Source: Desulfobulbus propionicus DSM 2032
GTDB taxonomy: Bacteria; Desulfobacterota; Desulfobulbia; Desulfobulbales; Desulfobulbaceae
Length of the DNA: 32,000 nucleotides
Reading direction: 5' to 3'
NCBI RefSeq assembly: GCF_000186885.1
Contig: NC_014972.1
Coordinates: 3,660,001-3,692,000 of the forward strand
Under the pieces are notes generated by a model, which did not search any database, was not told the origin of the DNA, and was given only the letters and a program-made list of their open reading frames with translations. Within the stretch, counting starts at the first letter, position 1. Each line of letters starts with the position of its first letter. The translations under genes were made by a program, and so were the position numbers. Shown one piece after another: positions 22,509-31,922 of this stretch.

Positions 22509-23423
22509 ATGGAATCCCTGTTCTCTTTTTTCCTGGCACTGCTGGTGGCGCCCCTGTTTCCCGGCATCATCCTCAAAACCAAGGCCTTGTTCGCCGGCAA
22601 AAAAGGGCCGCCGCTTCTGATCAAATACTACACCTTGGCAAAACTGCTGCGAAAAGGATCGGTCTACAGCACCAGCACCAGTTTTGTCTTTCGCCTCGGC
22701 CCCCCGATTGCCTGCGCCACCTCGCTCATGGCCCTGCTGTTCTTTCCCTTTGCCGGCATTCCGCCGCTGATCGCCTTCCATGGCGACGTGATCGTCCTGT
22801 TTTATCTTCTTGGTCTGGGAAGATTTTTTACCATCGTCGCCGCCCTGGACACGGCCTCGCCCTTTGAAGGCATGGGCGCGGCCCGCGAGGCCTTTTTCTC
22901 CACCCTTGCGGAAGGGACGATCTTTGTCATTCTGATTCTTTTTTTCCGCATGAGCGGCTCGCTCAGCCTGGCCGGATATTTCTCGGGCAGCCCTTCGATC
23001 TCGATTGCCGGCCCCCAGGGCGCCCTGCTGTTGCTGGTCATCGTGGCCTTATTCATGGTTCTGCTGGCCGAGAACTCGCGCGTGCCGGTGGACGATCCGG
23101 CGACCCATCTGGAACTGACCATGATCCACGAGGTGATGATCCTCGATCACAGCGGCCCTGACCTGGCTCTGATCGAACTGGGGGCCTTCTACAAGCTGTT
23201 CTTTTACGCCTCCTTTGTCGCCTGCCTGATCAAGCCGCTGTTCCCGGCCGGGCCGATCGTCAACACCCTGCTGTTTTACGGACTGCTGACCGCGGTCTAC
23301 CTGGCCATCGGCATTACCGAGTCAATCACTGCCCGGTTGAAGATGAACCTGGTTCCCAAGTACATCCTGACTTCCTTTGCCCTGGCCTTTTTCGCCATCA
23401 TCCTCACCATGGAGCTTGTGTGA
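22509..23423 (+). CDS. ehrB: NuoH / HyfC / HycD-like membrane subunit
   Basis: 304 aa from ATG 22509. Has the typical pattern: GPPLLIKYYTLAKLLRKG near the N-terminus, ASPFEGMGAAREA, and LAENSRVPVDDPATHLELTMIHEVMILDHSG (the NuoH/HycD cytoplasmic loop motif). The ORF-track extension back to 21978 overlaps ehrA and is rejected. Confidence 0.88.
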   Translation: MESLFSFFLALLVAPLFPGIILKTKALFAGKKGPPLLIKYYTLAKLLRKGSVYSTSTSFVFRLGPPIACATSLMALLFFPFAGIPPLIAFHGDVIVLFYLLGLGRFFTIVAALDTASPFEGMGAAREAFFSTLAEGTIFVILILFFRMSGSLSLAGYFSGSPSISIAGPQGALLLLVIVALFMVLLAENSRVPVDDPATHLELTMIHEVMILDHSGPDLALIELGAFYKLFFYASFVACLIKPLFPAGPIVNTLLFYGLLTAVYLAIGITESITARLKMNLVPKYILTSFALAFFAIILTMELV

Positions 23424-24076
23424 TGATCAACAGCACGGATGTCATCCTGGTCCTGATTCTCCTCTCGACCCTTCTGTCCCTGGGGTCCAGCCGCATGATG
23501 GCCCTGATCAAGATCATGGCCCTGCAGGGTGCCCTGGTTTCGCTCACCCCCATTTTCATTGAATCCCAGACGAAGTTGAGCAACAGCGGCATCCTCTTCT
23601 TCCAGCTGATGTTCCTGATCAAGGCCGTGCTCATACCCGGCCTGCTCTACATGGCCCTGACCCGAATCGCCATCAAGCGCGAGGTGGAGCCCCTGATCGG
23701 CTACCACGCCTCGCTCGCCGTGGGGCTCGGTCTCATCCTCCTTTCGACCTACATCACCCGCCATCTGGCGATCTCCCTCCAGGGCGATTATTTTCATCTG
23801 CTGATCACGGCGATCACCACTCTTGGCGGCGGCCTTTTTCTCATGATGAGCCGGACCAAGGCCCTCACCCAGGTCATCGGCTATCTGATGCTCGAAAACG
23901 GCATCTATCTGGTCGGCACCGCGCTCACCAAGCACCAGCACAACATCTATCTGGTCGAATTCGGCGTTCTGCTCGATCTGCTGGTCGGAGTGATGATCAT
24001 GGGCATCATCCTTCACAACATCAACCGTGCCTTTGACGACGTCGACACCACCTATCTCGAACAACTCAAGGATTGA
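23423..24076 (+). CDS. ehrC: HyfE-like small membrane subunit (NuoK-related)
   Basis: 217 aa with about 6-7 helices. GYLMLENGIYLVG resembles the NuoK/HyfE Glu-containing helix. ATG 23423 overlaps the ehrB stop codon by 1 nt (TGATG). Confidence 0.8.
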   Translation: MINSTDVILVLILLSTLLSLGSSRMMALIKIMALQGALVSLTPIFIESQTKLSNSGILFFQLMFLIKAVLIPGLLYMALTRIAIKREVEPLIGYHASLAVGLGLILLSTYITRHLAISLQGDYFHLLITAITTLGGGLFLMMSRTKALTQVIGYLMLENGIYLVGTALTKHQHNIYLVEFGVLLDLLVGVMIMGIILHNINRAFDDVDTTYLEQLKD

Positions 24077-24080
24077 TGCC

Positions 24081-25508
24081 ATGCTCGAATCCATTTTCTG
24101 TGTACCGCTGTTCACGGGTCTGATCGCCCTCTTTTTGCCGATCAAGCTGGGCCGAATCGTTCTGGTGGTCAGTGGCCTGCTCCATCTGCAGATGACCCTG
24201 CTCGCCTGGCTGACCTCCTTTACCCCCCTGCTGCCCGGTTATTTCGGCAGCGCCCCCTCCGGCATGCTGGTGCTGGTGGTCACGTCGTTCATCTTCCTGT
24301 GCATCGCTCCATACAGCGTGTTCTACATGCGTGAGCAGGAAATGCAGAGCGAACCGATCTTCATCGGCTGCATGCTGCTCTTTCTCGCGACCATGAGCAT
24401 GGCGGCCCTGGCCGAGCATCCGATCGTCTTCTGGATCGCTGTTGAAGCCACCACCCTGGTCAGCGCACCGCTGATCTTTATCAACCGTTCGAAAAAGGCC
24501 CTGGAGGCCACCTGGAAGTATGTGCTCATCTGTTCGGTGGGCATTGCCTTGGCCCTGCTCGGTTTCTTTTTCATCACCCTGTCCATGGAACAAGCCGATC
24601 TTGACGTGCCGCTAACCTTCTCCTCGCTCAACAGCGCCGCCCGCCAACTCGATCCGAGCTGGCTGAAGACCGGATTCATCTTCGTCCTCATCGGATTTGG
24701 CACCAAAATGGGTTTGGCGCCCATGCACACCTGGCTACCCGATGCCCACAGCGAGGCGCCCAGCCCTGCCTCGGCCCTGCTGTCTGGCGCGCTGCTCAAC
24801 TGTGCCTTCCTGGGCATCTACAAGGTGCACACCCTGATGGTCCTGGCCGGCTTGGGCGACTTCTCCGGATCGCTGCTCATCGGCTTCGGCTTGTTCTCCA
24901 TCCTGGTGGCCGGCATCTTTATCCTCAACCAGTCGGATTACAAACGGATGCTCGCCTATTCGAGCATCGAGAACATGGGCGTGATCGCCTTTGGCGTCGG
25001 CATCGGCGGCCTCGGCCTGTACGGGGCCATGCTCCATCTCATCCATCATTCGCTGCTCAAATCCTCGCTCTTTCTTTCCGCCGGCAATCTGGTGCTTGGC
25101 TTCGGCACCAAACTGGTGGCACGGTGCGGTGGCATGGTCAGCCTGCTGCCTCGAACCTTTGTCTCCTTTTTTGCCGGTTTTGTCGGCATCTCCGGATTGC
25201 CGCCCTTTGGCATCTTTCTCAGCGAATTGATGATCCTGCTCGGGGCCTTTCAAACCGGCCACCCCCTGGCTGCCGGGCTGTTCATCGCCACCCTGGTGCT
25301 GGTGCTCGCCGGTTTTGCCCGGATTGTCACCGCCATGTCCTTTAGCCCCCGCCAGGAAGAAGTTTTGGTCGAGGAGCAGACCCTGCGGATCATCCCGCCC
25401 CTTGCCCTGCTGCTGACTTCGGCCCTGCTCTGCGTCTGGATGCCCGAACCCCTTTTCCGGACCATCGTCAACACCATCGCGGTGATCGGAGGAACCATCC
25501 ATGGATAA
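24081..25508 (+). CDS. ehrD: antiporter-like membrane subunit (NuoN/NuoM / HyfF-like)
   Basis: 475 aa from ATG 24081, with AAGGA 8 nt upstream. Has WIAVEATTLVSA, GFGTKMGLAPMHTWLPDAHSEAPSPASALLSG, MLAYSSIENMG and HSLLKSSLFLSAGN. Confidence 0.88.
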   Translation: MLESIFCVPLFTGLIALFLPIKLGRIVLVVSGLLHLQMTLLAWLTSFTPLLPGYFGSAPSGMLVLVVTSFIFLCIAPYSVFYMREQEMQSEPIFIGCMLLFLATMSMAALAEHPIVFWIAVEATTLVSAPLIFINRSKKALEATWKYVLICSVGIALALLGFFFITLSMEQADLDVPLTFSSLNSAARQLDPSWLKTGFIFVLIGFGTKMGLAPMHTWLPDAHSEAPSPASALLSGALLNCAFLGIYKVHTLMVLAGLGDFSGSLLIGFGLFSILVAGIFILNQSDYKRMLAYSSIENMGVIAFGVGIGGLGLYGAMLHLIHHSLLKSSLFLSAGNLVLGFGTKLVARCGGMVSLLPRTFVSFFAGFVGISGLPPFGIFLSELMILLGAFQTGHPLAAGLFIATLVLVLAGFARIVTAMSFSPRQEEVLVEEQTLRIIPPLALLLTSALLCVWMPEPLFRTIVNTIAVIGGTIHG

Positions 25509-27012
25509 CCTGCTGCGGATCGACAACGGCGAACTGATCGAACGGCAGCGGATACCGCGCGTCGATTTCAGCCATTTCCTGCGCTTGCTGACCGACTTCG
25601 TCCATGCCAACGGCTACGTGGTCCAACTGTTTGCCTACCCGGAGGAAGGGCAGACTCGTCTGCTGGCCGTTGTCCGCAACAGCAACCTGTTTGTGCTCGA
25701 GACAACGGTTGACCGCGAGTTTCCTTCGTTGACCCTTGCCGGCGGCGCCAAATTCAGCATGTTTGAGCGGGAAATCGCCGAACAGTACGGTTTGATGCCG
25801 CTGGGCCACCCTTGGCTGAAAATGGTCCGCTACCACCCCAATTACACGGGACAGCCCGACGTCTTCGGCAACGACTACCAGCAGGACATCCCCGGCAACT
25901 ACCCGTATTTCCGGATCGAGGGCGAAGCCATCCACGAGGTCGGGGTTGGGCCGGTGCACGCCGGAATCATCGAACCGGGCCACTTTCGCTTCCAGTGCGC
26001 CGGCGAAGAGGTTCTCCATCTTGAGATTCAACTGGGCTACCAGCACCGGGGCCTTGAGCCCATGCTGACCACGGTGCCCCGCAAACGATTGCCCATCCTG
26101 TGCGAGGCCATCGCCGGGGATACCACCATCGGTCATACTCTCTGCTGCTGTCAAGCCATCGAGTCCCTGGCCGGCCTTTCGGTCGAACCCGGCGCCCGCA
26201 CGGTTCGCACCATTGCCCTTGAGCTGGAGCGAATCGCCAACCATATCGGCGACCTTGGCGCCCTCAGCGGCGACGTGGCCTTTAACCCGCCCGCAGCCTA
26301 TTTCGGCCGTATCCGCGGCGAATTCCTCAATCTGCTGCTCACCCTGTGCGGCAACCGTTTCGGCAAGAGCCTCATCCGGCCGGGCGGTGTCACCCAGCCG
26401 ATGGCGACGGAGCAACGGCAGATCATCCGCGCTAAAATCAAGGAACTGCGCAAGGAAATCATCCAGGTCTGCGATCTACTGTTCTCGGCCCATACGGTTC
26501 TGGCCCGGTTCGAGGACACCGGCACGGTCATCCGCAAGGTCGCCGATCAACTCGGCCTGGTGGGATATTGCGGCCGTGCCTCCGGCCTGGAATACGATGT
26601 GCGCGAATTTTTCCCCACCGAACGATACGCCGAGCTGCCCGCCAACAGCAACCGGGTGACCAACGGCGATGTGTACAGCCGGGCCATGGTCCGGCGCGAG
26701 GAAATCCTGCACGCGCTTGGCTTGATCGAAACCCTGCTGGCCGAACAGGAAGAGCCGCATCGGCCGGTTTGCTGGCAGGAGGGTGACCTTGCACCGGCGA
26801 GTTTCGTCGTGACCCTCAACGAAGGGTGGCGAGGCGAAGTCTCCCACTGCGTGCTGACCGATGCACACGGCAACATCCTGCGCTACAAGGTCAAGGACCC
26901 ATCCTTCCACAACTGGACAGGACTGGCCATGGCCCTGCGCAACCAGGAAATCTCGGATTTTCCGTTGTGTAACAAGAGCTTCAACCTCAGCTACTGCGGC
27001 TTTGATCTCTAG
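25501..27012 (+). CDS. ehrL: fused NuoC-NuoD / HyfG-HycE-like large subunit lacking the [NiFe] cysteine ligands
   Basis: 503 aa; the start overlaps the ehrD stop by 8 nt. The NuoC-like N-terminus has FEREIAEQYGL.PLGHP. The large-subunit core has VGPVHAGIIEPGHFRF, EIQLGYQHRG and RIANHIGDL. Where group-4 hydrogenases have E-R-x-C-G-x-C-x-x-x-H, this protein reads EAIAGDTTIGH (26104-26136). The C-terminus ends SFNLSYCGFDL with no DPCxxC motif and no cleavable extension. Confidence 0.88.
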   Translation: MDNLLRIDNGELIERQRIPRVDFSHFLRLLTDFVHANGYVVQLFAYPEEGQTRLLAVVRNSNLFVLETTVDREFPSLTLAGGAKFSMFEREIAEQYGLMPLGHPWLKMVRYHPNYTGQPDVFGNDYQQDIPGNYPYFRIEGEAIHEVGVGPVHAGIIEPGHFRFQCAGEEVLHLEIQLGYQHRGLEPMLTTVPRKRLPILCEAIAGDTTIGHTLCCCQAIESLAGLSVEPGARTVRTIALELERIANHIGDLGALSGDVAFNPPAAYFGRIRGEFLNLLLTLCGNRFGKSLIRPGGVTQPMATEQRQIIRAKIKELRKEIIQVCDLLFSAHTVLARFEDTGTVIRKVADQLGLVGYCGRASGLEYDVREFFPTERYAELPANSNRVTNGDVYSRAMVRREEILHALGLIETLLAEQEEPHRPVCWQEGDLAPASFVVTLNEGWRGEVSHCVLTDAHGNILRYKVKDPSFHNWTGLAMALRNQEISDFPLCNKSFNLSYCGFDL

Positions 27013-27078: not shown

Positions 27079-27825
27079 ATGTTCAAGGTACTCTACAACC
27101 GACTGGAACAGGGATATCGGACCAGCAGCTATCCCACGAAACCAATCGCCCTTTATTCACGATTTCGAGGAATTCCAGAAATCAATGCCGACTGCGATCC
27201 GGCCATTGCCCGCCAATGCGCCGCACTCTGTCCCCAGGAAGCCATCATCGCGGAGGAGAAGAAAATTGATCTGGGTCGCTGCACCTTCTGTGGCGCCTGT
27301 GCCTTGGTGGCGAACGGGGCATTTGTCCGTTTCACCCAGAATTTCGAATTGGGCACGGCCCATCGTGACCATCTGATTACCGGCGGCTCGCTGCCTGACC
27401 TGGCCAGTCACGCCAAGGCCCATTTCAAAAAACTTTTCGGCCGTTCGTTGCAACTCCGCCAGGTTTCAGCCGGCGGGTGCAACGCCTGCGAGGCCGATAC
27501 CAATGTGTTGAACACGCCCTTTTTCGATCTCTCCCGGTTCGGCATCGACTTTGTCGCCTCGCCGCGACATGCGGACGGCATTCATGTCACCGGGCCGATT
27601 ACCCGGAACATGAGAACCGCCCTGCTCGATACTTATGCCGCGGTACCCGCCCCCAAGGTGGTGATCGCCAGCGGCTGTTGTGCGATTTCCGGCGGTCCTT
27701 TTCATGGTTCCCGTGAAATCCTGGGCGACCTCAATGCGCTCATCCCGGTGGACCTCTACATTCCGGGCTGCCCGCCGCATCCCCTCACCACCCTCCACGC
27801 CCTGCTGGCCTTTTTCAAGAAATAA
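27079..27825 (+). CDS. ehrS: fusion of a reduced ferredoxin-like domain (HyfH/HycF/NuoI-related) with a NuoB / HyfI / HycG-like small subunit
   Basis: 248 aa. The N-terminal ~90 aa carry CDPAIARQCAALCP and CTFCGAC, which are 6 of the 8 Cys of a 2x[4Fe-4S] ferredoxin. The C-terminal part has GGCNACE, ASPRHADG, GCCAISGG and PGCPPHP, so all four ligands of the proximal N2-type [4Fe-4S] cluster are present. Confidence 0.88.
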   Translation: MFKVLYNRLEQGYRTSSYPTKPIALYSRFRGIPEINADCDPAIARQCAALCPQEAIIAEEKKIDLGRCTFCGACALVANGAFVRFTQNFELGTAHRDHLITGGSLPDLASHAKAHFKKLFGRSLQLRQVSAGGCNACEADTNVLNTPFFDLSRFGIDFVASPRHADGIHVTGPITRNMRTALLDTYAAVPAPKVVIASGCCAISGGPFHGSREILGDLNALIPVDLYIPGCPPHPLTTLHALLAFFKK

Positions 27826-28056: not shown

Positions 28057-29280
28057 ATGGAAATTTACATTGCCAGGCAACCCATTTTCGACCGGCACAA
28101 ACGTCTGCATGCCTACGAGGTGTTGTACCGTTCCGGGATGGACAACACCTACCCAGCCAGCGTGGACAGCGACGAGGCAACGCATACCGTTCTGGCCCAT
28201 GTCCTGTTCAATATCGGGTTGGACGCCATCACAGGCAACCGCCTGGCCTTGATCAACTTCACTGAAAATCACCTGTTGCAGGGAACTCCCACCCAACTGC
28301 CGCGGACACGCTGCATTATCGAAATTCTCGAGTCGATCCTGCCCTCAGCGGAGGTCTTCACCGCCTGTCTGGAGTTAAAGCGCAAGGGATATACGCTTGC
28401 CCTGGACGACTTTGATTTCAATCGACGATCCGAGCAACTCATCCCCTATGTCGATATCGTCAAGGTTGATTTCCAGGGTATTGACCGCATGTTGCTGAAT
28501 GAAAACATGGTCCGGATGCGGCAGTATGCCGCAGTACAATGGCTTGCCGAAAAAATTGAAAGCCACGAGGACTTCACCTTGGCCCAATCCCTTGGTTTCA
28601 CCTACTTTCAAGGCTATTTTTTCAACAAGCCGGAGATCCTGAAAAACCGCAAGATCGACACCTCGAAAATCATTCTCCTCAATCTGCTGGCCGAGGTGTG
28701 CCGTCCGGAGATCAATCTGAAGAAAGTCGAACAAATGGTCGCGCCCGACGTGTCGCTCTCCTACAAGCTCCTTCGCTACATCAATTCGGTATATTATTCG
28801 TTGGTGCGTAAAGTCACTTCCATCCGCTATGCCCTGACCTATCTAGGAGAAAGCGGGACGCGGCAATTCGTTTCCCTGGCGGCAGCTTCGGAGATTTCCG
28901 CAGGCAAACCTTCGGAATTGATGCGCTTATCGATGGTCCGGGCGGAACTCTGCCGATTGCTGGCCGCTTCCCGCCCAAGTTCAACCGATGCTTCCCAGCT
29001 CTTTCTGCTTGGTCTTTTTTCGTTGCTGGACGCCATGCTCGACATGCCCATGGACGAGCTCACCGATCAACTGCCTCTCACCGCCGAGGTGAAGGCGGCC
29101 CTCAACGAGCGCAAGGGGCCGTTTGCCCCCTATCTCCAGGCGGTGACCACCTACGAACAAGGCGAATTCGAGGCCTGCACCGAGTTTCTGCGGATGCTCA
29201 ACATTGCCCCTGACATCATGATCAGCGCCTATTTCAGGGCCCTGGCCTGGGCCGATCTCTTTGACGCCAATCTTGCCTGA
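28057..29280 (+). CDS. EAL-domain plus HDOD-domain signalling protein (COG3434-type putative c-di-GMP phosphodiesterase)
   Basis: Has the MEIYIARQPIFD....YEVLYR start typical of this architecture. EAL catalytic-position residues are recognisable (EVL, INFTE, EILE, LDDFD, VKVD, AEKIE, FQGYFF). The C-terminal half has HDOD-like features (LSYKLLRYINS, YALTYLG, LLGLFSLLD). Confidence 0.85.
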   Translation: MEIYIARQPIFDRHKRLHAYEVLYRSGMDNTYPASVDSDEATHTVLAHVLFNIGLDAITGNRLALINFTENHLLQGTPTQLPRTRCIIEILESILPSAEVFTACLELKRKGYTLALDDFDFNRRSEQLIPYVDIVKVDFQGIDRMLLNENMVRMRQYAAVQWLAEKIESHEDFTLAQSLGFTYFQGYFFNKPEILKNRKIDTSKIILLNLLAEVCRPEINLKKVEQMVAPDVSLSYKLLRYINSVYYSLVRKVTSIRYALTYLGESGTRQFVSLAAASEISAGKPSELMRLSMVRAELCRLLAASRPSSTDASQLFLLGLFSLLDAMLDMPMDELTDQLPLTAEVKAALNERKGPFAPYLQAVTTYEQGEFEACTEFLRMLNIAPDIMISAYFRALAWADLFDANLA

Positions 29281-29408: not shown

Positions 29409-30248
29409 TCATTCGAACAGACTGGGGGTGGTGCGCAGGAATTGCTGAACATTCTCCAGTTCGGCAGAGGTGAGCTTGAGGGCGACCGCCTCGTGCAGTT
29501 GCAGCAGCGCCAGGGAAGGCGCATGGGCCAGCCCGATGCCCATCTGGTGGCAAATGTGATTGGCCATGCGCACCAGCAGAAGGACGTAGTTTTCAGCATC
29601 AAACTCCGGCAAATCATGATCCCGGGCGACAACGGCAAACATCTCCGGCATGCTGATCTGCCGCAGCAGCAGATATCCCTGTTCCGCATGGAGGAGATCC
29701 ATGGCCCCGAGCAGCAGTTCCTGGGGCACCTGGAGCGCTTGCTTTTTTCTTTTCTTTTCGGCGAACACCTTAAGAATGAGCAACTTGCCGATATCATGAA
29801 ACAGACCGGCGGAAAAAGCCTCGTGCTGCATCACCCCGAAATCAAGGCGATTGGACAGCATGCCGGCGGCAAAGGCGCATCCCAGTGAATGCTGCCAGAG
29901 TTTTTTCATGATCTCGTTCAATTGTCCATCGCGACAGCTGAACATGTTTTTGCTGATGTCCACGAGCACGATGCGGCTGACTTCCGACAACCCCAGCCGG
30001 ACCAGGGCCGACCTGACTGTGGTGACGAGAACAAACCCACGATACATCGACGAGTTGGCCACTTTGAGGAGATTGCTGGAAAGCGCCTGATCACCGCTGA
30101 TCAATTTTTCAACGATGCGGAAATCGGGCTCTTTTTTGATCAGTTCGCGCTGAATCCGCAGTGAAACGGGATTAAAGACCGGCAGGGAAAGCCGTTCCGA
30201 TTCAATGTATTTCTTGAGTAGGGCGACAAAAGTACGTTCGTTGGTCAT
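29409..30248 (-). CDS. HDOD-domain protein
   Basis: 279 aa from ATG 30248 (MTNERTFVALLKKYIESERLSLPVFNP). Has LSSNLLKVANSSMY, ALVRLG, WQHSLGCA, GLFHDIGKLLI and ARDHD. The upstream in-frame extension to 30392 is Pro/Gly/Arg-rich and was trimmed. Confidence 0.85.
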   Translation of the reverse strand: MTNERTFVALLKKYIESERLSLPVFNPVSLRIQRELIKKEPDFRIVEKLISGDQALSSNLLKVANSSMYRGFVLVTTVRSALVRLGLSEVSRIVLVDISKNMFSCRDGQLNEIMKKLWQHSLGCAFAAGMLSNRLDFGVMQHEAFSAGLFHDIGKLLILKVFAEKKRKKQALQVPQELLLGAMDLLHAEQGYLLLRQISMPEMFAVVARDHDLPEFDAENYVLLLVRMANHICHQMGIGLAHAPSLALLQLHEAVALKLTSAELENVQQFLRTTPSLFE

Positions 30249-30364
30249 CCTAAGCCATGGGGTAAGTGGGCCGAAAAGGGCGCGTGGTCCGTCATGCCAA
30301 GCGCGCGGCGCCTGAGAGCCTTGCCCGAAGGGCGTTGCCATCGCGTCGGCTCGGCAGGATAGGT

Positions 30365-30392
30365 AGCATAAAACGCGCGCCAAATGAAGCAA
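30365..30392 (-). promoter_or_regulatory. candidate sigma-70-type promoter for the HDOD gene
   Basis: On the minus strand: TTGCTT (30392-30387), 16-nt spacer, TATGCT (30370-30365), roughly 110 nt upstream of ATG 30248. Motif match only. Confidence 0.3.
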
Positions 30393-30522: not shown

Positions 30523-31458
30523 TCAGACAGCCTTTTCTCGTTTTTTGGTGTGCTCCAGAGTGGTCATGACCGTGGCCACCATGGAGGAGACATCGGCCAG
30601 GTTGGCGGGTAGAATCATGGTGTTGTTTTCCTTGGCCAGCTTGCCGAACTGGTCAAGGTACTTCTTGGCCACCTCAAGGTTGGCCGCATCCTGGCCGCCA
30701 GGCTCGCTCAAGGCCTCGGCAACCTGGCGAATTCCTTCGGCGGTGGCCGCCGCTACCTTGAGAATTTCCTGCGCCTGACCTTCCGCCTCGTTGATCCGTC
30801 GCATTTTTTCGCCTTCGGACCGGGCAATGGCCTCGGCCCGCTCGCCCTCGGCCCGGTTGATCATCGCCTGACGCTCCCCTTCGGACTTGGCGATTTCCGC
30901 CCGTTTCTCGCGTTCGGCCTTCATCTGCTTCTCCATGGCTTCAAGCACGCTGCGCGGCGGCTGAATGTCCTTGATCTCGTAACGCAATACCTTGACGCCC
31001 CAGTTCTGCGAGGCCTCGTCCAGTGCCTCGACCACCTGGCGATTCAGATTCTCCCGCGCCTCAAAGGTGTTGTCGAGGCTGATCTTGCCAATGGCCGAGC
31101 GCAGGCTGGTTTGCGCCAGCTGCGCCACGGCGAAATGGTAATTGTCGATGCCATAGGCGGAGAGTCGGGAATTGACCACCTGCAGATAAAGACAGCCGTC
31201 GATCTCCATGGAAACATTGTCGGCGGTGATGCAGGTTTGGGCCGGAATGTCGATCGACTCCTCCTTGAGGCTGCGTTTATAGGCCACCTTATCGAAAAAG
31301 GGGATCAAGATGTGAAAACCGGCCTCGAGAGTGGTGCGGTATTTGCCCAGCCGCTCGATCACATACTCATACTGCTGATCCACGACCACCGCGGTCTTGA
31401 CCAGGATCACGATCGCAAACACAACCAGGGCCACCACGCCGATGAGCACGTTATCCAT
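30523..31458 (-). CDS. SPFH/Band-7 (stomatin/prohibitin-like, QmcA/YbbK-type) membrane protein
   Basis: 311 aa from ATG 31458. An N-terminal membrane anchor is followed by VVVDQQYEYVIERLGKY and ITADNV..EIDG.LY.QV. The Glu/Ala/Arg-rich coiled coil KAEREKRAEIAKSEGERQA is typical of the family. Confidence 0.92.
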   Translation of the reverse strand: MDNVLIGVVALVVFAIVILVKTAVVVDQQYEYVIERLGKYRTTLEAGFHILIPFFDKVAYKRSLKEESIDIPAQTCITADNVSMEIDGCLYLQVVNSRLSAYGIDNYHFAVAQLAQTSLRSAIGKISLDNTFEARENLNRQVVEALDEASQNWGVKVLRYEIKDIQPPRSVLEAMEKQMKAEREKRAEIAKSEGERQAMINRAEGERAEAIARSEGEKMRRINEAEGQAQEILKVAAATAEGIRQVAEALSEPGGQDAANLEVAKKYLDQFGKLAKENNTMILPANLADVSSMVATVMTTLEHTKKREKAV

Positions 31459-31922
31459 CAGTGTTCTCCGTTTGTTTTCAGGGGTGCGACCTTGACGGTC
31501 AGGTTTTTCTTTTCCACAATTCGCACGACCGTTCCTTTGGTCACTGGCTCCTCGGAGGTGGCCTGCCAAAACGAACCGCCGAATTTTACCTTTCCTGCGG
31601 CCGGGGGCAGGATATCCTCGATCACCTCGCCAGTAGCATCCTCGGGCAGGCTATGTTCCATGGCATCGACCTCGAGGGTGCGGCCGAGAAAAATTTTTTT
31701 CACCGTCGATCGCAACAAAAGGAGGGCGAGGAGACTGGCGGCGAGAAAAACCAGCAGTTGGGTGGAAAGAGAGATCGGCAGCAGATAGACGGCCAGAGCC
31801 GCACACCAGGCGCCAATGCCGAAAAAAAACACGATCAGTCCCGGCAGGAGCAATTCGAGGGCAAAGAAGACGATACCGCTAAGAAACCACAGCAGAACCG
31901 GCGACAGGGAAAGCAGAACCAT
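31458..31922 (-). CDS. NfeD-family membrane protein (YbbJ-like partner of SPFH proteins)
   Basis: 154 aa. Three N-terminal hydrophobic helices precede a C-terminal OB-like soluble domain (GKVKFGGSFWQATSEEPVTKGTVVRIVEKKNLTVKV). Its stop overlaps the SPFH start by 1 nt, the classic nfeD-SPFH operon arrangement. Confidence 0.85.
   Translation of the reverse strand: MVLLSLSPVLLWFLSGIVFFALELLLPGLIVFFFGIGAWCAALAVYLLPISLSTQLLVFLAASLLALLLLRSTVKKIFLGRTLEVDAMEHSLPEDATGEVIEDILPPAAGKVKFGGSFWQATSEEPVTKGTVVRIVEKKNLTVKVAPLKTNGEH

Follow-up and report, generated by a model that had tools for sequence, protein, structure and literature searches.

What can a large subunit with the fold of a [NiFe]-hydrogenase do once every cysteine that would hold the metal has been replaced? 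The question is raised by ehrL, a gene of Desulfobulbus propionicus DSM 2032 in the 32,000-nucleotide stretch of contig NC_014972.1 between positions 3,660,001 and 3,692,000 (the window; all coordinates below are counted from its first letter). Its product, EhrL (503 amino acids, aa), is very probably the large subunit of a six-subunit, complex-I-like membrane complex, Ehr (energy-converting-hydrogenase-related). It keeps the fold of HycE without the Ni-Fe ligands, and it does so as a member of a family in which this is the rule. An initial annotation, made from the window sequence without database searches, had noticed the loss of the ligands without recognizing that publications on the Ehr and Hyq families treat this loss as their hallmark.

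A HycE-like large subunit without Ni-Fe ligands

Pfam gives EhrL a match to Complex1_49kDa (1.1e-34) and a weak N-terminal match to Complex1_30kDa, and the protein is therefore classed as a NuoC-NuoD fusion of the HycE type. A phmmer search against all PDB chains placed HycE of Escherichia coli formate hydrogenlyase (FHL; 7z0s_E, 3.7e-39) at the top, followed by Pyrococcus furiosus MbhL (6cfw_L, 9.4e-37) and Nqo4 (3.7e-30), with MbsL (6u8y_L, 2.4e-18) as a weaker homolog. The AlphaFold2 model of EhrL, built from an alignment of 118 sequences, has a mean predicted local distance difference test score (pLDDT) of 94.8 and a predicted TM-score (pTM) of 0.95, and the structure closest to it in Foldseek is again HycE 7z0s_E (TM 0.88). 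No NCBIfam model reached its cutoff with EhrL, and the scores against the NuoD and NuoCD equivalogs lie under theirs (NF004739, 171 bits vs 360; TIGR01962, 140 vs 459; NF008728, 93 vs 840). The 90%-identity cluster of EhrL contains ADW19334.1 of D. propionicus DSM 2032; public names for EhrL and its relatives include ‘hydrogenase’, ‘Ni,Fe-hydrogenase III large subunit’, ‘formate hydrogenlyase subunit 5’ and ‘NADH-quinone oxidoreductase subunit C’.

In the phmmer alignments RVCGICGFAH of HycE lies over AIAGDTTIGH of EhrL, with ERMCGICSFSH of MbhL over the same stretch, and DPCYSCTDR of HycE lies over NLSYCGFDL. The N-terminal cysteine positions are thus occupied by Ala205 (26113-26115) and Thr208 (26122-26124) and the C-terminal ones by Ser497 and Gly500, the four replacements that had been read by eye in the initial annotation; its register, and its placement of the N-terminal motif at 26104-26163 (residues 202-221), were right. 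The arginine of R-x-C-G-x-C is likewise replaced (Ala203), so that, of the L1 (R-x-C-G-x-C-x-x-x-H) and L2 (D-P-C-x-x-C) motifs by which [NiFe]-hydrogenases of group 4 are recognized, EhrL has lost four cysteines out of four together with the arginine. The further claim that EhrL has no C-terminal extension for proteolytic maturation is borne out by its last residue, Leu503, which is aligned with what is presumably HycE Arg537, the maturation cleavage site; residue numbers in the HycE chain are shifted by an internal tag.

The register is settled by relatives that have cysteines in the same columns. Among 118 aligned representatives of 50%-identity clusters there are four such sequences, three of them (P0205, P0233 and P0268) with all four cysteines and one (P0244) with three, its last C-terminal cysteine being displaced by one column (LCYSACDR). 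They read AERICGVCxxSH and DFPL[IV]NKSFxLCYSCxD[RL], and end at the same residue as EhrL. An alternative register, with Cys201 or Cys215-217 on the ligand positions, was rejected, as it would break the columns of E202, G206, H212 and E221; Cys201 is replaced by Ala in most relatives, and the cysteine-bearing sequences fix the register against placing it on a ligand position. At about 31-32% identity, these four proteins carry Ni-Fe cysteines within a DFPLxNKSFxL...D[RL] scaffold and have no C-terminal extension, and they may be true hydrogenases nearest to the Ehr branch. A cysteine-bearing ‘EhrL’ has been noted in Desulfotomaculum ruminis (PMC3569383).

Family distribution, conservation and the variable cysteines

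Genomes, one per species, were scanned with the pattern [IV][SPA]DFP[LIV]xNKS. At least 600 species genomes from many phyla contained a match, and 599 of the 600 matches listed were confirmed relatives. Loci were compared by tblastn of the six window proteins against the best 80 of these at least 600 matches, and residues were counted in 84 EhrL sequences from species-level genome loci, to which all counts below refer unless another set is named. The best 80 matches come from Desulfobulbales (including cable bacteria), Desulfobacterales and Geobacterales (Geobacter, Geomonas, Pelobacter), from Planctomycetota, Verrucomicrobiota, Gemmatimonadota and Acidobacteriota, and from Omnitrophota, Riflebacteria, Spirochaetota, Myxococcales, Elusimicrobia and one alphaproteobacterium. 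The same six genes, in the order A-B-C-D-L-S and with the fused small subunit EhrS included, were found in the related loci L001 and L002 and in about 70 of the 80. Close homologs of EhrL (70-86% identity) all belong to Desulfobulbaceae or Desulfocapsaceae, and an EhrL homolog is present in 181 plasmid records.

The replacements at the ligand positions recur throughout this set: position 205 is Ala in 77/84, 208 is Thr in 74/84, 497 is Ser in 83/84 and 500 is Gly in all 84, and the complete quartet ATSG is found in 70 genomes. Among the 118 cluster representatives, [AS][ST]SG occurs in 79 vs CCCC in 3. Loss of the cysteines is therefore a character of the family and not a local oddity. The surrounding scaffold, which the initial annotation had described as conserved, proved to include residues that do not vary at all (G206, D207, E221, N491, K492, S493, L496, Y498, G500 and D502, each 84/84). 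Mean column identity is 0.957 in the beta1-beta2 loop and 0.946 in the C-terminus (residues 484-503), against 0.63 for the whole protein, and the loop consensus, HEVaVGPVHAGxIEPGHFRFqc, is nearly identical to ‘GPLHVTSDEPGHFRL’ of HycE. Most of the C-terminal scaffold (DFPLxNKSFxL.Y...D) is common to the cysteine-bearing relatives and thus ancestral; G-D-[ST] in place of G-x-C is confined to the Cys-less proteins.

In EhrS, the cysteines of the N2-type cluster (C134, C137, C201 and C231) are kept in 73-75 of 76 sequences. Its NuoI-like domain retains C68-x-x-C71-x-x-C74 and C51-P, plus an orphan conserved cysteine, C47, and is without the first two motif-1 cysteines and the motif-2 Cys-Pro, an arrangement that is the same in 76 genomes. 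Judged by the standard ligation pattern of 2x[4Fe-4S] ferredoxins, one predicted [4Fe-4S] cluster of this domain is kept and the other is lost, and the electron wire of the complex would comprise just two clusters. The one retained presumably corresponds to N6b, which is next to N2 in Thermus thermophilus complex I.

Comparison of ehrL in the window with that of L001 (78% protein identity) gave proportions of nonsynonymous and synonymous differences (pN and pS) of 0.134 and 0.624, and a ratio of nonsynonymous to synonymous substitution rates (dN/dS) of about 0.11, with synonymous sites near saturation. The ehr complex is under purifying selection. Conservation of the pocket scaffold, of the Fe-S ligands and of charged residues in the membrane subunits (see below), together with the low dN/dS, argues that it is functional and maintained by selection. 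Proteomics of Geobacter, in which every Ehr subunit was detected and abundance was highest on formate (PMC7894505), agrees with this, and the description of Ehr as non-functional and drifting (PMC13194489) is contradicted.

The cysteines themselves are variable. Cys490 and Cys499 were numbered correctly in the initial annotation, but the CCC triplet is 215-217, not 214-216. Among the 120 closest cluster representatives from Desulfobulbales (at least 70% identity) this triplet reads CCC in 80, SCC in 15, CMC in 8, CLC in 4 and CGC in 3, with rarer variants (CCA, CYA and CFC, 2 each; SMC and TMC, 1 each) and 2 sequences unmatched by the pattern. Of the 84 genomes, 63 have Ala at position 215 and 64 have Tyr, His or Phe at 216; residue 217 is most often Cys (52), otherwise Ala (24) or Ser (8). 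AYC (26) and AYA (11) lead among the complete triplets, and CCC occurs twice. The corresponding residues in solved homologs are A-Y-T (HycE), T-Y-V (MbhL) and A-Y-A (Nqo4). From these counts, CCC is a Desulfobulbales-specific replacement of a conserved Ala-Tyr-(Cys/Ala) and no conserved new metal site. Cys490 is present in 72/84 (otherwise Asn or Ile) and Cys499 in 73/84 (otherwise Ala or Ser); in rhizobial and Azospirillum homologs residue 499 is Ala or Ser, and a cysteine is found at 496. Cys217, Cys490 and Cys499 were seen in every combination, and no co-variation of the three that would be a sign of a shared site was found in the 84 genomes. The suggestion that these five cysteines form a functional new site, for which the initial annotation had itself named conservation among orthologs as the check, is not upheld, each of them being replaceable.

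The ehr operon and its surroundings

Coordinates of the six genes and of the EhrL segments discussed above are collected in Table 1.

Table 1 Genes of the ehr operon and segments of EhrL in the window.
Feature	Position	Strand	Remarks
ehrA, HyfB/NuoL-type antiporter-like membrane subunit, 651 aa	20533..22488	+	Pfam Proton_antipo_M 1.5e-53
ehrB, NuoH/HyfC-type membrane subunit	22509..23423	+	Pfam NADHdh 1.6e-25
ehrC, HyfE-type (NuoK-like) membrane subunit	23420..24076	+	NCBIfam hydrogenase 4 membrane subunit 1.6e-20; Pfam Oxidored_q2 weak
ehrD, HyfF/NuoM/N-type antiporter-like subunit	24027..25508	+	Pfam Proton_antipo_M 5.6e-49; start codon uncertain
ehrL, fused NuoC/NuoD-type (HycE-like) large subunit, no Ni-Fe ligands	25501..27012	+	Fifth of six tightly packed genes
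EhrL beta1-beta2 loop, residues 145-165, HEVGVGPVHAGIIEPGHFRFQ	25933..25995	+	Most conserved EhrL segment
EhrL former L1 (N-terminal) Ni-Fe motif, residues 202-221	26104..26163	+	E202-A-I-A205-G-D207-T208-T-I-G-H212...E221; HycE/MbhL alignments, Cys-bearing relatives
EhrL Cys215-Cys216-Cys217 triplet	26143..26151	+	Lineage-specific, variable
EhrL former L2 (C-terminal) motif and C-terminus, residues 484-503	26950..27009	+	ISDFPLC490NKSFNLS497YC499G500FDL
ehrS, small subunit, HycF/NuoI-like N-terminal and HycG/NuoB-like C-terminal domain	27079..27825	+	Pfam Oxidored_q6 8.5e-26

In NCBIfam, EhrA matches hydrogenase 4 subunit B (2.6e-166, under the curated cutoff). Its charged residues E139, K217, K248, K345 and E400 are invariant in the family; R145, E159, E180 and D186 are conserved in EhrC, and E140, K227 and K345 in EhrD, while EhrB has kept the loop ENsRvPvDDPaTHLELTMiHEVm and many acidic residues (71 genomes). 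The best PDB match of EhrD is MbhH (6cfw_H, 8e-30), with MbsH second. EhrS matches HycF (7z0s_F, 1.7e-10) over residues 2-97 and HycG (7z0s_G, 1.6e-32) over residues 110-242.

The ehrD stop overlaps the ehrL start at 25501-25508 (ATGGATAA), and the ehrC and ehrD frames overlap by ~50 nucleotides (24027-24076) if the GTG at 24027 is the start; both overlaps suggest translational coupling. The start of ehrD is uncertain because its homolog in L001 (475 aa) is called 18 residues shorter. In six other loci, from Geobacterales and other groups (L042, L055, L059, L063, L081 and L083), the best ehrA match lies at least about 3 kb from ehrB, sometimes on the opposite strand, which implies either inserted genes or a second copy of ehrA; the latter fits the naming of ehrA-1 and ehrA-2 in Geobacter (PMC13194489).

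The cluster consists of six genes only, with no NuoEFG, NuoA or NuoJ, and no hyp, hyc, formate dehydrogenase or ferredoxin gene was found within the window. No conserved redox partner adjoins the operon: none is present in the window, L001 or L002, and none is consistent across the other loci (L003 and L004 were too short or rearranged for comparison of neighbors). The genes on both sides are unrelated. Upstream lie those for a solute-binding protein, a SIR2 protein and a DeaD (DEAD) helicase. Downstream, an EAL-HDOD protein (28057-29280, +), which aligns with no more than the C-terminal half of the EAL profile, is followed by a convergent HDOD/HD protein (29409-30392, -) and an SPFH/NfeD pair (30523-31922, -). 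The downstream neighbors in L001 are different, a giant kinase/GAF/PAS protein and a GGDEF response regulator. Near the start of the window, an open reading frame of 778 aa (230-2566, +) encodes a PALP domain (cysteine-synthase-like and pyridoxal phosphate-dependent; residues 9-286) fused to a class-I cysteinyl-tRNA synthetase (CysRS) that is complete with catalytic, DALR and anticodon-binding domains (residues 323-764); this CysK-like/CysRS fusion is unusual.

Relatives and possible function of the complex

Ehr was first described in Geobacter sulfurreducens (GSU0739-45; Coppi 2005) and was surveyed by Marreiros et al. 2013. As defined in the literature (PMC3569383, PMC6349859, PMC7894505), it agrees with the window operon in having HyfB-, NuoH/HyfC-, HyfE- and HyfF-like membrane subunits with a large and a small subunit, the large one without Ni-Fe cysteines; G. 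sulfurreducens subunits have been named EhrA-1, EhrC, EhrL and EhrS (PMC7894505). The same cluster is present in Geobacter sp., Geomonas limicola and other Geobacterales, with an EhrL of 45-47% identity and an identical C-terminal motif. Differences are the CCC of Desulfobulbales, where Geobacterales have A-Y-A or A-Y-C, and the position of ehrA, about 3 kb from ehrB in several Geobacterales loci, whereas the six genes are contiguous in the window. HydDB was trained to exclude Ehr as a homolog that does not metabolize H2 (PMC5037454).

The Ni-Fe cysteines are likewise missing from the sister group Hyq, the ‘endo-hydrogenase’ (hyqRBCEFGI) of Azorhizobium caulinodans and other diazotrophic Alphaproteobacteria (Sprecher 2012; PMC3357923), with Azospirillum brasilense and Rhizobium leguminosarum among the listed carriers. 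Hyq has the same six structural subunits (HyqBCEFGI), and HyqG is of nearly the same length as EhrL (~504 aa vs 503 aa), has also lost both CxxC motifs, and shares with it VGPVHAGIIEPGHFRF, [IV]SGD[AS]T and DFPLCNKSFN.SY.G.DL. Identity of EhrL to the homologs on plasmids and chromids of Rhizobium, Azospirillum and others is only 32-36%, however; the small subunit is NuoB-only (177 aa in Rhizobium rhizogenes, L086 8327-8860), unlike EhrS with its NuoI-like domain; Hyq has its own regulator gene; and an H2:quinone activity is claimed for Hyq. The locus on R. rhizogenes plasmid pC5.7b (L086) consists of a regulator, hyfB, nuoH-like, hyfE-like and hyfF-like genes, a 507-aa ‘NuoC’ and the 177-aa NuoB-family gene, and its large subunit reads VGPVHAGIIEPGHFRF, ISGDST and DFPLCNKSFNCSYSGHDL. 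Through these motifs HyqG Cys-491 can be equated with EhrL Cys490, and HyqG Cys-497 with Leu496, so that, of Cys-258, -491 and -497, reported as completely conserved in HyqG (A. caulinodans numbering), EhrL has an equivalent of Cys-491 and a leucine for Cys-497. Hyq-type operons in Rhizobium (L086) and on A. brasilense p1 (L085) have in common the 177-aa NuoB-only small subunit and an upstream helix-turn-helix regulator, and their large subunits read NCSY[AS]GHDL where EhrL has NLSYCGFDL. When an EhrL from an alphaproteobacterium (Stellaceae) served as the query of a homolog search, the only matches were close Stellaceae-like relatives, with no Azorhizobium HyqG among them.

EhrL was also compared with two further groups of enzymes. 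HycE and MbhL are its best sequence and fold matches, the EPGHFR of the beta1-beta2 loop is shared with them, the NuoC-NuoD fusion is that of HycE, and EhrS has the CxxC-type N2 cluster motif of HycG. From [NiFe]-hydrogenases of group 4 it is set apart by the missing cysteines, motif arginine and maturation extension, and by the lack of hyc and hyp neighbors in the window. With complex I (Nqo4/NuoD) it has in common the fold, the absence of a Ni-Fe site, a neighboring N2-type cluster and homologous membrane subunits; it differs in scoring far under the NuoD cutoffs and in its hydrogenase-like beta1-beta2 loop.

Ehr is most likely a redox-driven ion pump. A soluble low-potential donor, most plausibly ferredoxin, would deliver electrons to EhrS, first to the one [4Fe-4S] cluster of its NuoI-like domain and then to its N2-type cluster. 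An acceptor would be reduced where relatives have their Ni-Fe site, in a polar pocket made up of D207, T208, H212, S497, Y498, D502 and the IEPGHFRF loop. As to this acceptor, a membrane quinone (menaquinone) is the most economical guess, since the corresponding pocket of complex I serves quinone reduction and a quinone has been proposed for Hyq as well (PMC3357923). Coupling of the reaction to ion translocation would run through the EhrB loop and the chains of Lys and Glu residues in EhrA, EhrC and EhrD. The reverse direction is equally possible, in which case reduced ferredoxin would be made at the expense of the membrane potential.

Several points weigh against this reading. Both donor and acceptor are guesses, since no partner dehydrogenase or ferredoxin gene adjoins the operon in the window, L001 or L002. 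No quinone-ligand pattern of the complex I type was recognized in EhrL, and the automatic phmmer alignment puts the quinone-binding residue Tyr87 of Nqo4 in an insertion with no EhrL counterpart. Some genomes reported with ‘Ehr’ lack quinone biosynthesis (PMC6349859), and perhaps represent a different subgroup. Lastly, the presumed orthology with the Geobacter cluster in which the family was defined rests on Geobacterales other than G. sulfurreducens with its GSU0739-45.

Among the other explanations, one holds that the invariant former Ni-Fe pocket (G206-D207-T208, H212, the IEPGHFRF loop and N-K-S-F-N-L-S-Y-x-G-x-D-L) is no mere quinone pocket and serves catalysis or the binding of a cofactor as a site of an undescribed kind; it would be, for instance, a metal site other than Ni-Fe, or a site for an unrecognized small-molecule substrate. 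We consider this unlikely, though if true it would also explain the H2 turnover reported for the Cys-less Hyq complex. That turnover is the only experimental hint in the superfamily of a real hydrogenase with a non-canonical site, as proposed for Hyq, in which H2 would be turned over at the remodeled pocket and electrons exchanged with quinone via the N2-type cluster. Genetics and physiology ascribe both H2 uptake and evolution to the six-gene hyq operon although HyqG is without its two CxxC motifs (PMC2650096, PMC3357923); rhizobial and Azospirillum homologs share ISGD[AS]T and DFPLCNKSFNCSY[AS]GHDL as well as VGPVHAGIIEPGHFRF with EhrL; Cys490 has its counterpart in HyqG Cys-491; and IEPGHFRF, which resembles a proton pathway, is almost identical in HycE. 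No known chemistry, however, activates H2 without a Ni-Fe, Fe-Fe or Fe-GP cofactor, and the Hyq authors themselves called the site ‘speculative’ and Ni-Fe ‘uncertain, if not unlikely’ (PMC3357923), their claims resting on genetics and H2 measured in whole cells, never on purified enzyme. HydDB classes Ehr as non-H2-metabolizing (PMC5037454), the cysteines that might hold a metal (217, 490 and 499; 497 in Hyq) are not conserved between the subfamilies, and identity to the Hyq-type proteins is just 32-36%, all of which makes a hydrogenase very unlikely.

We rank just below it, as very improbable, a lineage-specific thiolate site for a metal or cluster, built above the N2-type cluster from Cys215-217, Cys490 and Cys499. 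Cys499 must lie at the old site because it stands between positions 497 and 500, which held the C-terminal ligands; Cys215 and Cys216 (i+7, i+8) would share the face of helix 206-224 in the AlphaFold2 model with Thr208 and His212; CCC is in the majority among Desulfobulbales (80/120 representatives), and the last 20 residues of EhrL are nearly invariant there. By helix geometry, however, Cys215 and Cys216 would be about two turns, or about 10 Å, from position 208; each cysteine of the triplet is replaced within Desulfobulbales (by Ser, Met, Leu, Gly, Ala, Tyr or Phe); outside the order, 215 is Ala and 216 is Tyr, Phe or His; and Cys217, Cys490 and Cys499 come in all combinations. Reduction of sulfane sulfur or polysulfide by an enzyme of the MBS/Mbx type, with its substrate at or beside the proximal cluster, ranks lower still in probability, though it would suit a sulfur-metabolizing Desulfobulbus. 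MbsL is a detectable homolog of EhrL and MbsH the second-best PDB match of EhrD, and Desulfobulbales are organisms of the sulfur cycle; yet the family is no less frequent in Planctomycetota, Verrucomicrobiota, Gemmatimonadota and Geobacterales, EhrL is much nearer to HycE and MbhL than to MbsL (3.7e-39 for HycE vs 2.4e-18), and the six genes include no Mrp-type module, whereas MBS has 13 subunits and such a module. All four cysteines of the N2-type cluster are conserved, so a site-differentiated iron is not expected in EhrS. The least probable explanation, and a strongly disfavored one, is that the complex has lost its function and is what decay has left of an Ech-type hydrogenase, a view put forward for Geobacter (PMC13194489). 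The four catalytic ligands are indeed gone, no function has been shown for the complex, and missense mutations in ehrA-2 and ehrB accumulated in long-term anode cultures of Geobacter (PMC13194489). Against decay stand the dN/dS of about 0.11, an intact six-gene operon in at least 600 species genomes of many phyla, the conserved pocket residues, Fe-S ligands and membrane Lys/Glu, and the expression and regulation of the Ehr proteins in Geobacter (PMC7894505).

A large subunit without the Ni-Fe cysteines is not new, being the defining trait of Ehr and Hyq and on record from 2005-2013 onward; no discussion of Ehr in Desulfobulbus was found in the searchable literature. Because the public names are misleading, metabolic reconstructions that count EhrL as a hydrogenase or as complex I are wrong. 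The conservation map has an invariant pocket and coupling loop, a predicted two-cluster electron wire and variable cysteines, for which reason D207, Y498, D502 and the EPGH loop, rather than CCC, are the targets for mutagenesis. The Ehr family is very widespread, is under purifying selection and has been proposed as a link between group 4 hydrogenases and complex I, and the question that it raises for bioenergetics is which ligand its invariant, non-cysteine pocket binds.

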